Source: a virus. Taken from it: 14,519 nucleotides of DNA. Made by a program: the position numbers and the translations under genes. The notes under the pieces are model-generated. The model had not been told where the DNA came from. It did not search any database and worked only from the letters and a program-made list of their open reading frames with translations. Where the stretch lies: UHGV virus genome UHGV-0203503. One strand, given 5' to 3'. Shown in pieces: positions 8,640 through 11,398 of this stretch (positions are counted from its first letter, which is position 1; every line of letters begins with the position of its first letter).

Positions 8640-8952
8640 AATGCTGCCACCCCCTTTTAACCCATGCTACGCGATTTTTGTTGGTGTGAATCAGTCCTCT
8701 TGCGCTTTCTGTTAAATATGGTAGTTCTCTGTTGTTAAACGGATAATCACCATTAAGTCCAGCTTTAATGAATTGCTGCCGCATTAACTTTCTTGCCTGC
8801 TCCCTTTCCTTTGGTGTTGACCCCATCACCTTTAAATGCAAGGTTAAGGAAACACAAATACCGCAATTACGACTAAATGGTTTACCTTCTGGCGCTCCAG
8901 CATCAATCCAGTCGGAGTATACTTCATAAAAATCAGCTAATTGATTAAACAT
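8632..8952 (-). CDS. Hypothetical protein, 106 aa
   Basis: ATG 8952 with AGGAG 9 nt upstream; track ORF 8632-8970. Confidence 0.5.
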   Translation of the reverse strand: MFNQLADFYEVYSDWIDAGAPEGKPFSRNCGICVSLTLHLKVMGSTPKEREQARKLMRQQFIKAGLNGDYPFNNRELPYLTESARGLIHTNKNRVAWVKRGWQHYV

Positions 8953-9052
8953 AATGCACAACTCCTGCAATAGCCGCTACCAGTGCAAGCACATAAACAG
9001 CAAGGAAAATTTTAGCGCCAGTGGTGTAGTTGCGTCGTTGGTACTTGGTCAT
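8945..9052 (-). CDS. Possible 35-aa single-helix membrane peptide
   Basis: ATG 9052-9050 overlaps upstream TGA (ATGA); translation MTKYQRRNYTTGAKIFLAVYVLALVAAIAGVVHYV; its stop overlaps the next gene start. Confidence 0.2.
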   Translation of the reverse strand: MTKYQRRNYTTGAKIFLAVYVLALVAAIAGVVHYV

Positions 9053-9246
9053 TCGTCGTTCTCCCGCCCTAGATATGAGAGTGATGTGATTGCCACTGCC
9101 GTGAACCTGTCACTGCCAATCAAACTCTTCAGCACCTCGACATCTTCTTGCGATTTAATTCTGAACGTCAACTGAGCTATGCCAGCCACTGATGACGCGC
9201 CTCCTGCAGATATTGCATTGTAGTGATAAATATATCTATTGCTCAT
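9049..9246 (-). CDS. Hypothetical protein, 65 aa
   Basis: ATG 9246 with GGAG 8 nt upstream; track ORF 9049-9252. Confidence 0.4.
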   Translation of the reverse strand: MSNRYIYHYNAISAGGASSVAGIAQLTFRIKSQEDVEVLKSLIGSDRFTAVAITSLSYLGRENDE

Positions 9247-9309
9247 CCACACATCTCCACTAAAGCGTGCGCCACATAGAGCGCACTGATAATTAACATG
9301 AACGGGTAG

Positions 9310-9699
9310 CTATTCACTTTTAGCCAGGCTTTCGAATTGCTGTGCTATGGTGTCAAACTGAACCATCTTGACAACATCGTCGAACATGACAAATTCTCCT
9401 TCATGGTCTTCACTCATGTCAGCACCGTAATCCTCCCGCTTCGGTGCTGCTGCGATAATTTCACCCTCGTATCCGATTCCAATGCTCCTCGATTCACCTA
9501 TGTAGACTACCGGACATCCGACGAGATAATCTGAGTGCGAAGCAAGCTTACCATTCAAAATTTTACCGTCATTCATCCTTACATAAACATCCGACATCAA
9601 CGGAAGCGCCATTATTTGCTCATAGGTTAGCTTTACTGGCTTGGCGGAGTTCATTACCGGCATGTACTTAGGCGGCTTGCGCCCGTTCACCCTGCTCAT
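9310..9699 (-). CDS. Hypothetical protein, 129 aa
   Basis: ATG 9699 preceded by AGGAGG (4 nt spacing); acidic C-terminal half. Confidence 0.55.
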   Translation of the reverse strand: MSRVNGRKPPKYMPVMNSAKPVKLTYEQIMALPLMSDVYVRMNDGKILNGKLASHSDYLVGCPVVYIGESRSIGIGYEGEIIAAAPKREDYGADMSEDHEGEFVMFDDVVKMVQFDTIAQQFESLAKSE

Positions 9700-9841
9700 T
9701 CGACCTCCTGCTGTGGTGCTTCTGCGAGCATTGTCACAAGAGCCATGAAATCAGCATACTTAACATATAAACCAGAAATGTCATCGCCATCTGTATTAAG
9801 CTACGCGTCGTTGCAGTTTGCTGCGTATGTTTTAACTTCAC

Positions 9842-10075
9842 TCATACCCTAACCCCCATAATTTCTTCGTAATAGCCATCTTCTTCAAACTCAATCTTTG
9901 CGATTTTGAGCGCATCCTCATCTGTGATATCAATCGCTTTGAATTTGCATTTTGACAGCACTATGCAGCCTGACAGGATTAACCACTTATTCCACAAGCG
10001 CACTCGCCTGATTGTCCTGCTCGAATACATCTTGTTCTGCACAAACCAGAACTCGTATGTTTTTACTTTCGCCAT
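9842..10075 (-). CDS. Hypothetical protein, 77 aa
   Basis: ATG 10075; GGTGA upstream; track ORF. Confidence 0.45.
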   Translation of the reverse strand: MAKVKTYEFWFVQNKMYSSRTIRRVRLWNKWLILSGCIVLSKCKFKAIDITDEDALKIAKIEFEEDGYYEEIMGVRV

Positions 10076-10111
10076 ATCATCACCATTAAAAATAAGAGTG
10101 CTGAATCGTGT

Positions 10112-11065: not shown

Positions 11066-11094
11066 TTGACGTGTACATAATATTCATGTATATT
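11066..11094 (+). promoter_or_regulatory. Near-consensus sigma70 promoter P5 for the plus operon 11120-13784
   Basis: -35 TTGACG 11066-11071, 17-nt spacer, -10 TATATT 11089-11094; ~25 nt leader to AGGAGG and ATG 11120. Confidence 0.5.
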
Positions 11095-11119
11095 TTTTAC
11101 ATGACAAAAGGAGGGCTGA

Positions 11120-11398
11120 ATGTACCCAGATGGCACTAAACTAATGTTTGCATACGAGCTGTTATCTTCAATGAAATCTGGTGAACTGGTTGGTATTCAC
11201 TTCGAGAATGAATACTCAAGCGAAATCATCAAAGGAGAAAAGGAAAATTGCCGCTCCGTGGTTATTGATGAAAAGTACCGAATGACGCACAACATGTTCA
11301 GGTCTTACTGCACCAGAATAGCCAATGAACAAGGCATGGTTATAAAAACAAAAACCAGTGAAAGCAAAAAATTCATGTATATCTGGAGAGTCCTGTGA
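11120..11398 (+). CDS. Hypothetical protein, 92 aa
   Basis: AGGAGG 11109-11114 five nt before ATG 11120; stop overlaps the next start. Confidence 0.5.
   Translation: MYPDGTKLMFAYELLSSMKSGELVGIHFENEYSSEIIKGEKENCRSVVIDEKYRMTHNMFRSYCTRIANEQGMVIKTKTSESKKFMYIWRVL

Follow-up and report, generated by a model that had tools for sequence, protein, structure and literature searches.

Small hydrophobic proteins of at most 50 amino acids (aa) include the type I toxins IbsC, ShoB and TisB, the membrane regulators MgtR, KdpF and AcrZ, and Stp of phage T4 (26 aa). Stem-loops between cistrons process or stabilize the polycistronic messenger RNAs of phages, as in the RNase III sites of T7 and the hairpins that act as 5′ stabilizers, and the mosaic joints of lambdoid phages reportedly carry conserved "linker" or boundary sequences. 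The locus described here belongs to the virus genome UHGV-0203503, whose 14,519 nucleotides (nt) are called the window throughout, and consists of two gaps in a minus-strand operon of very small genes. The present analysis suggests that neither gap is a regulatory spacer. Gap 1 (9253-9309) would be a micro-gene, that is, a very short open reading frame (micro-ORF), with a GC-rich hairpin inside it, and gap 2 (9700-9841) a decaying gene stump, a reading to which we assign a probability of roughly 0.7.

The micro-ORF resembles the small hydrophobic proteins in its length of 23-24 aa, its single apolar core of helix length, its "intergenic" location and its having been missed by gene callers, a comparison for which surveys of small ORFs were used (PMC11188072, PMC11364881). 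Unlike IbsC, ShoB, TisB, MgtR, KdpF, AcrZ and T4 Stp, to which it has no sequence similarity, its peptide matches no PHROG or Pfam family, and, unlike the type I toxins, it displays neither an antisense RNA partner nor toxin-type regulation and is dispensable in the laboratory. As judged from its sequence, the putative micro-gene is a member of the class of small hydrophobic proteins missed by annotation and resembles no described family.

Similar comparisons can be made for the layout. The 8-nt overlap at the start of the micro-ORF and the 4-nt overlap at its stop are those of coupled overlapping phage cistrons, as at 9049-9052 and 8945-8952, but the unit is just 24 codons long and has a conserved stem-loop mid-way, unlike the usual coupled cistrons. 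Like the lambdoid linkers, the block that holds the micro-ORF is a short high-identity island between non-homologous modules that is reused across genera; unlike them, it forms a phased ORF and bears a coding signature. The hairpin, in turn, is a conserved sense-strand stem-loop without a U-tract in an early operon, as are the intercistronic stem-loops of the T7 type, while its predicted stem of 6-7 base pairs (bp) is far shorter than that of RNase III substrates and lies inside a coding frame.

Results and Discussion

Two Gaps Tiled by Short Reading Frames

The window is that of a Skatevirus-like siphophage. Its positions 9000-10100 are matched by 132 phage records, with identities of 80-99%. 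Most are phages of Salmonella, Escherichia and Shigella that are assigned to Skatevirus, and owing to the mosaic nature of the region not one of the records spans 80% or more of the stretch. The minus-strand genes form a run of very small overlapping cistrons, which closes at a canonical terminator with a T-run, 8255-8237(-), just ahead of the terminase genes.

The two gaps pointed out by an earlier note on this DNA are present at an ORF threshold of 50 aa, at which no minus-strand frame is found over 9253-9309 or 9700-9841, but neither of them is empty. Both are fully tiled by short minus-strand ORFs, one of 24 codons (9317..9243) and one of 49 codons with an in-frame TAG (9845..9696), whose starts and stops overlap those of the neighboring genes. 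When the two are counted, the minus-strand operon is tiled unbroken from 8945 to 10075. The description of the gaps as non-coding is contradicted for gap 1 by codon periodicity, an excess of synonymous changes, a conserved start and a phased stop, and it fails for gap 2 as well, where the sequence corresponds to the 5′ part of a gene that relatives carry intact. The features concerned are the following.

9243..9317, minus strand: unannotated micro-ORF of 24 codons, with GTG at 9317-9315 and TGA at 9245-9243, filling gap 1 (9253-9309)
9267..9286, minus strand: GC-rich hairpin in micro-ORF codons 11-17 (S-A-L-Y-V-A-H), with 8 nt between its end and the GGAG that serves the next gene
9696..9845, minus strand: stump ORF of 49 codons, with ATGA overlaps with the 77-aa gene (ATG at 9845-9843) and the 129-aa gene (TGA at 9698-9696)
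9801..9803, minus strand: in-frame amber TAG at stump codon 15, a single G>A change relative to TGG (Trp)

Putative Micro-gene in Gap 1

The micro-ORF 9317..9243(-) encodes MNSYPFMLIISALYVAHALVEMCG. Its GTG is located 5 nt before the stop of the upstream 129-aa gene, a TAG (9312-9310) that falls within the micro-ORF start region, and the resulting 8-nt overlap has the same geometry as one found elsewhere in the operon, at 8945-8952. At the other end, the TGA overlaps the ATG of the next gene, which encodes 65 aa.

The block is found in 137 phage records by blastn (query 9200-9340) and in 157 by tblastn. It is 95-99% identical in 91 of the 137 blastn records and reaches Sashavirus, Nonanavirus and Kagunavirus at 72-95% identity (blastn), which together with Skatevirus makes four genera. 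In most comparisons the homology starts or ends at the block edges (9240-9262 and 9316-9355), with different flanking genes on both sides. Starts and stops were surveyed at 60 loci, representing 53 distinct sequence contexts. Nearly all 53 contexts have GTG or ATG at an unchanged start position, behind at least eight different upstream gene ends. In most Kagunavirus members GGGAGG is located 5 nt ahead of this start, and some others have GGAG-like motifs. Across about ten types of downstream junction, no stop interrupts the frame before the one that overlaps or directly adjoins the start of the next gene (as ATGA, TAATG or TGATG), and this holds in nearly every intact variant. The exception is the deletion variant Bas80 (L004, 355-480), where the hairpin block is joined directly to the gene of a 35-aa membrane protein. 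Annotation begins this gene at the ATG of the hairpin loop; the micro-ORF continues out of frame to 28 codons.

Codon 7 of the micro-ORF (9297-9299) is ATG (Met) only in the window among the loci examined, the relatives having ATA, ATT or ATC (Ile); an 18-codon ORF starting with ATG is therefore visible in the window genome.

The variation within the block carries the signature of a coding sequence in this frame. Among the loci collected by blastn only, a search blind to frame, third codon positions hold 12 of the 17 variant alleles (p = 0.0019), and 11 of the 17 (65%, against 23% expected) are synonymous and 6 non-synonymous in the micro-ORF frame, while each of the other two frames gives 3 synonymous alleles out of 15 and 12 non-synonymous ones. 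The larger set yields 20/32 at third positions (p = 0.0007) and 18/32 synonymous. Part of it came from codon-shaped search patterns, which biases it, and we therefore rely on the blastn-only figures. The periodicity and the synonymous excess span the whole 57 nt, beyond the hairpin stem. Between the Skate and Kaguna consensus sequences, the changes AGT>AGC, GCG>GCC, TTC>TTT, ATA>ATT and GCT>GCG are silent, and I>V and L>V are replacements; the non-synonymous changes in the micro-ORF are mostly I/V, L/V, A/V, I/F and S/N.

One other frame through gap 1 has also been considered. The 129-aa and 65-aa genes share a frame, which follows arithmetically from the two overlaps, and the 21 intervening codons, LPVH(V/I)NYQCALCGARFSGDVW (9246-9312), are free of stops, so that read-through of the TAG would fuse the two genes. 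This frame was taken up because it is open and contains a CxxC motif; as a coding frame it was rejected on its 3 synonymous versus 12 non-synonymous variants.

The peptide consensus is MN(S/N)YPF-ILI(I/V)SA(L/V)YV(A/V)HAL, followed by a variable tail. The window peptide has a grand average of hydropathy (GRAVY) of 1.2, and its best 15-residue window, FMLIISALYVAHALV, has a mean Kyte-Doolittle value of 2.24. All clades are similar in this respect, with GRAVY values of 0.95-1.44 and best 15-residue windows of 2.2-2.4. The peptide thus has an apolar stretch of at least 15 residues that would be able to span a membrane or embed in it, and its composition indicates that the micro-ORF product is probably a hydrophobic, membrane-embedded mini-protein. 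No inspected record annotates the micro-ORF, and a collection of about 15 billion predicted proteins contains none of ten peptide variants. Scans of IMG/VR and metagenomes with degenerate patterns matched only the same phage groups and no more distant relatives.

On this basis, we propose that the ORF in gap 1 is a real, unannotated gene for a hydrophobic peptide of 23-24 residues, which would begin with the short polar segment MN(S/N)YPF and continue through an apolar core, some 15 residues long, into the variable tail. The micro-gene would act as a self-contained module that moves between unrelated accessory genes in Skatevirus, Kagunavirus, Nonanavirus and Sashavirus. Because the GTG lies 5 nt before the upstream stop, translation in the Skate types is likely to proceed by termination and reinitiation, and most Kagunavirus members would translate the micro-gene from its own GGGAGG ribosome-binding site. 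The ribosomes may then be handed to the next gene through the ATGA overlap. The peptide could enter the host inner membrane as an accessory factor for host interaction or exclusion, one that plaque formation would not need.

Several observations weigh against a translated and functional micro-gene. No Shine-Dalgarno sequence precedes the GTG in the Skate types, to which the window belongs, and the variant counts given above refer to alleles and not to independent events. The block is only slightly more conserved than a neighboring gene (96.5% versus 94.2%, 3 loci), and the idea that it is far more conserved than its neighbors was dropped on these figures. The start is broken in three loci (ATA in L008, CTG in L038 and GTT in L062), and deletions interrupt the frame in three others (1 nt in L035 and in L036, 13 nt in Sergei). 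Finally, among the engineered genome-reduced seszw phages, for which public genomes are available (PMC9825161), the designed deletion of the upstream gene removes GTGAATAG and leaves no in-frame micro-ORF start, and the mutants are viable (PMC9825161). The peptide is therefore accessory and dispensable under laboratory conditions.

The same deletion has a further consequence at the block. It leaves a 7-codon stub of the upstream gene nearby (L072, phage 60S, and L073, phage 190L; the stretch corresponds to window 9243-9320). The stub of 60S is open through the block in the frame of the upstream gene and is fused to the next gene, the product being annotated as a 101-aa protein. The later clone 190L carries a 1-nt G insertion (CTAGCCCG), by which that fusion ends at a TAA ahead of the hairpin, and this insertion may be a compensatory, un-fusing mutation.

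Hairpin within the Micro-ORF

The inverted repeat described by the earlier note, GTGCGC (9267-9272) and GCGCAC (9281-9286) with an 8-nt loop, is found exactly there; it is placed not merely between two genes, as had been stated, but within the 24-codon coding frame. In the sense RNA, GUGCGC(U)-CUAUGU-(G)GCGCAC forms a 7-pair stem (six Watson-Crick pairs and a closing U·G) with a 6-nt loop, and the folding free energy (ΔG) of the 32-nt hairpin segment is -11.6 kcal/mol.

By itself, the hairpin is hardly more than chance would give. The window contains 52 perfect 6-bp stems with loops of 3-10 nt, against 29 ± 7 in shuffles, and 5 stems with at least five G/C, against 1.3 ± 1.1, and the 81-nt fold around the hairpin is not unusual (z = -0.71). 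What raises the hairpin above chance is its conservation, which the earlier note had proposed to check: more than 55 related loci were compared, and none lacks it. The other four GC-rich perfect 6-bp stems of the window (starts 2073, 6289, 8238 and 13791), among them the one of the T-run site 8255-8237(-), all lie just past the 3′ ends of minus-strand genes and are likely terminators.

Every variant that was folded keeps the stem, with ΔG values between -8.2 and -14.8 kcal/mol, and in none of them does the sense strand fold less stably than the antisense strand. The changes in the stem are mostly one-sided transitions that lead to G·U pairs on the sense strand only (Sergei, L063, L062 and the Kaguna GGUGCAC type); four independent changes are of this kind, and only one double change is seen. 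When the peptide is held fixed, the Skate-type stem is stronger than 99.8% of the synonymous recodings (p = 0.002, an optimistic value because the hairpin was selected by eye), and in the Kaguna types 1-9% of the recodings fold as well as the observed sequence (p 0.01-0.09).

Against a selected stem stand the following results. Neither the paired fraction nor the covariation score exceeds that of shuffles in either register, and no compensatory double changes are found; the 3′ partner slid by two columns pairs almost as well because of the GCGC periodicity; and a silent GCC>GCA change in the L022 type deletes one stem pair. The same periodicity accounts for an apparent "register shift" of the stem in Kagunavirus, which was discarded. 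A search of the whole window against Rfam at gathering thresholds gives no match, nor does one of 9150-9950 at E ≤ 5.

Taken together, an RNA-level role of the hairpin on top of coding, in mRNA stability, processing or the coupling of translation, is plausible, at roughly even odds. The suggestion of such a role in the earlier note thus retains a basis in the conserved hairpin, the changes compatible with G·U pairing and the stability relative to recodings, and loses the part that concerns termination and attenuation (see below). The stem may protect or structure the 5′ side of the downstream cistron, or it may pace coupled ribosomes.

It is unlikely, although no other alternative fares better, that the block is primarily an RNA element, for example an RNase E or RNase III processing site with a 5′-protective stem-loop or a tuner of translation, with the ORF incidental or vestigial. 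Such an element would explain why the stem is present in 100% of the variants, including those in which the micro-ORF is broken (Sergei, L035, L036 and L008), a retention that also speaks against the coding interpretation. It would fit the sense-strand G·U substitutions and the recoding result, the A/U-rich single-stranded AUAUUAAUUAUCA ahead of the stem with the GGAG of the next gene 8 nt after it, and the viability of phages that lack the ORF start but have the hairpin. It would not explain the codon periodicity and the synonymous excess over all 57 nt instead of the stem alone, nor a start kept as GTG or ATG and a stop phased with the next gene. In addition, the lack of covariation above shuffles and of an Rfam match and the ordinary fold score count against it, and the hairpin was chosen by visual inspection of a window in which chance would give about one GC-rich stem of this kind. 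We therefore retain the micro-gene with a hairpin inside it as the preferred reading of gap 1.

Gene Stump in Gap 2

Read on the minus strand from the ATG at 9845-9843, gap 2 gives MSEVKTYAANCNDA, the amber stop, LNTDGDDISGLYVKYADFMALVTMLAEAPQQEVE and the terminal stop. Stump codons 1 to about 40 correspond to the N-terminus of a resident gene, here called gene A (phrog_23941, "EaE" in some records), the PHROG match covering residues 1-37, and the last 8 or so codons (…APQQEVE and stop) derive from a donor cassette. The sequence of the gap is 87-95% identical to relatives, seven of which align over the first 36-40 stump codons or so. Gene A is intact and full-length in Bas80, BUCT3377, C1 and HC6, and the gene of the relatives encodes 93-158 aa.

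The context of codon 15 reads GCG TAG CTT in the window and GCG TGG CTT in all seven aligned relatives. Among all the loci fetched, TGG is found in 11 relatives and TAG in the window alone, and the sole exact-flank match in IMG/VR also carries TGG. A pseudogene is indicated by homology to part of a gene, ending at 9725-9738, combined with the TAG lesion. It can be concluded from these alignments that gap 2 is probably the stop-broken N-terminal stump of a gene cut by an imported cassette. As in other remnants of cassette replacement, the stump consists of a resident N-terminal fragment, a donor tail and a nonsense mutation; the sole oddity relative to routine remnants is that the donor resembles a gene of a T7-like podophage (Koutsourovirus) and the recipient is a siphophage.

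An improbable alternative is that an error of sequencing or assembly produced the TAG at 9803-9801, or that this codon is suppressed, and that gap 2 expresses an intact 49-aa protein. The codon is a single base away from the TGG of all 11 relatives, and the stump keeps ATGA overlaps at both ends; the possible sequencing error is also a point against the stump as a decaying gene. Even if intact, however, the product would be a truncated chimera, with 40 residues of a 93-158-aa protein followed by a foreign tail. As for suppression, TAG is an ordinary stop in the window genome because the nearby 129-aa gene ends in it, and the window contains no tRNA genes, hence no suppressor tRNA. Reassignment or suppression of TAG was rejected on these grounds and on the TGG of the relatives.

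Imported Cassette and Chimeric Gene

The truncation of gene A involves two overlapping features.

9432..9731, minus strand: imported cassette comprising the tail of the donor upstream gene, a GGAGG ribosome-binding site and 88 donor codons (blastn to phage KKP 3828, 65%)
9310..9699, minus strand: 129-aa chimeric gene, residues 1-88 like Koutsourovirus (KKP 3828) and residues 89-129 the C-terminus of gene B (phrog_3126)

The insert, about 290 bp long, is similar to a gene of KKP 3828, a T7-like Salmonella phage (Koutsourovirus), with a protein identity of 57% (E = 2e-39), and the match takes in the last codons of the donor upstream gene and the ribosome-binding site. At the junction, the donor reads …GCACCGCAGCAGGAGGCAGAATGAGCAG and the window …GCACCACAGCAGGAGGTCGAATGAGCAG; an exact search for the donor junction in IMG/VR gave no match. 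The homology to gene A ends at 9725-9738 and that to gene B resumes at 9434, in line with a PHROG match of the 129-aa protein at residues 88-128 only; for the chimeric gene, the limits of homology were placed at about 9434 and about 9725-9731. In Bas80 and C1, gene A is followed by gene B, with the C-terminus …GADMSEDH(D/E)GEFVMFDDVV…QQFESLAKSE.

These observations indicate the following sequence of events. A cassette of about 290 bp from a T7-like (Koutsourovirus-like) source replaced the interior of the A+B gene pair. The in-frame joining of the donor ORF to the 41 C-terminal codons of B produced the 129-aa chimera, which is presumably translated from the GGAGG site brought in by the cassette. 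Gene A was cut to the 49-codon stump, which then acquired the TGG>TAG change at codon 15.

Both ends of the cassette (9696-9731 and 9432-9450) have the gene-end motif …(A)AAPQQE… in common, after which come GGAGG and an ATGA overlap, and two adjacent genes of KKP 3828 (L014, 860-905 and 1180-1209) end with that motif. It could be a repeated linker able to mediate cassette exchange between T7-like podophages and siphophages.

Remaining Alternatives

We have also considered that the block in gap 1 is a recombination "linker" only, a short stretch of homology that sits where modules meet, stays uniform through frequent exchange and has no function of its own. The homology that starts and stops at the block edges, with unrelated genes beside it in four genera, is what such a linker would produce. 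It would not produce variation biased to third positions, a conserved start codon or a phased stop, and it leaves the retained stem pairing unexplained, so that we regard it as quite improbable. Besides, a linker status would be a consequence of a shared module and does not therefore exclude a function.

A related, broader proposal joins function and exchange, and we consider it doubtful. In it, the 75-nt block would be a dual-purpose "adaptor cassette" of four enterobacterial siphophage genera, combining a functional membrane micro-protein of 24 residues, a ribosome relay and a homologous landing pad. The stem-loop and the phased overlaps (8 nt on the 5′ side, ATGA on the 3′ side) would relay ribosomes from any upstream to any downstream gene, and the block sequence would be the landing pad for swaps of accessory genes on either side.

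There is very little probability that the hairpin is an intrinsic terminator or attenuator controlled by the short ORF as a leader peptide. A short ORF with a GC-rich stem does resemble the layout of a leader peptide, and GUUUU follows the stem in some relatives. In the window, however, the 3′ arm is followed by GCUUUAGUGG, in which only UUU occurs, in agreement with the absence of a U-tract recorded by the earlier note, and the Kaguna types have no U run. The terminator scan makes no call at the hairpin, although the same scan does report 8255-8237(-). There is a single stem, with no alternative hairpin or antiterminator pairing and no significant outer helices (z = -0.71), and a run of regulatory codons is absent from the ORF. 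The intrinsic terminator and the leader-peptide attenuator were both rejected for these reasons, and the attenuation proposed in the earlier note falls with them.

The notion that gap 2 holds an internal promoter, a small RNA gene or a processing site, also raised in that note, finds no support: one weak promoter-like match (9731-9760) and one terminator-like match (9812-9825) are seen on the plus strand, but the promoter-like matches, 8 against 8.9 expected in shuffles, include none on the minus strand in the gap, Rfam gives no match, and the sequence is the coding 5′ end of the relatives' gene at ordinary coding-level identity. More generally, a sigma-70 promoter in either gap was rejected, as no minus-strand match is found in 9243-9317 or 9696-9845 and the totals are at shuffle level. 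The micro-gene in gap 1 and the decaying stump in gap 2 remain our reading of the two gaps.

Neighboring Features

The remaining features of the operon next to the gaps are given here.

9049..9246, minus strand: downstream 65-aa gene (phrog_29890, function unknown), the ATG of which overlaps the micro-ORF TGA (ATGA)
9255..9258, minus strand: Shine-Dalgarno GGAG of the 65-aa gene, 8 nt before its ATG (9246-9244) and within the 3′ end of the micro-ORF
9842..10075, minus strand: upstream 77-aa gene (phrog_10786), the stop of which overlaps the stump ATG
8945-9052, minus strand: 35-aa hydrophobic gene (phrog_9340), called "membrane protein" in the annotation of Skate and BS5

The GGAG-N8-ATG arrangement of the 65-aa gene is kept in Skate-type relatives. 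In Skate and BS5, the 35-aa phrog_9340 gene directly follows the micro-ORF, giving two consecutive mini membrane proteins.

Farther upstream, back-to-back promoter-like sites are found on the plus strand at 11066-11094 (10/12 matches) and on the minus strand at 11107-11079. They lie in the divergent region between the minus-strand operon of small genes and a plus-strand ORF of 543 aa starting at 11395, where relatives have a primase gene. The sites at 11066-11107 are likely the early promoter region.

Implications

Overall, the locus is a case of ordinary phage mosaicism with one modestly novel putative micro-gene. The significance of gap 2 is limited to a clean worked example of cassette replacement, in which a T7-like donor would have contributed to a siphophage. 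The block of gap 1 is a compact case for the study of how short conserved modules sit at mosaic joints, and its hairpin allows constraints from coding and from RNA structure to be studied on the same 20 nt.

If the micro-ORF is translated, about 150 sequenced genomes of Salmonella, Escherichia coli, Shigella and Raoultella phages miss a gene, and several of the affected phages are candidates for therapy or biocontrol. The micro-ORF would then be a compact case of a tiny membrane peptide of virulent phages. The finding also calls for caution in phage annotation and in the design of genome reductions: designs that delete whole annotated genes silently remove the start of the micro-ORF, and they may create read-through fusions of the kind seen in seszw 60S.

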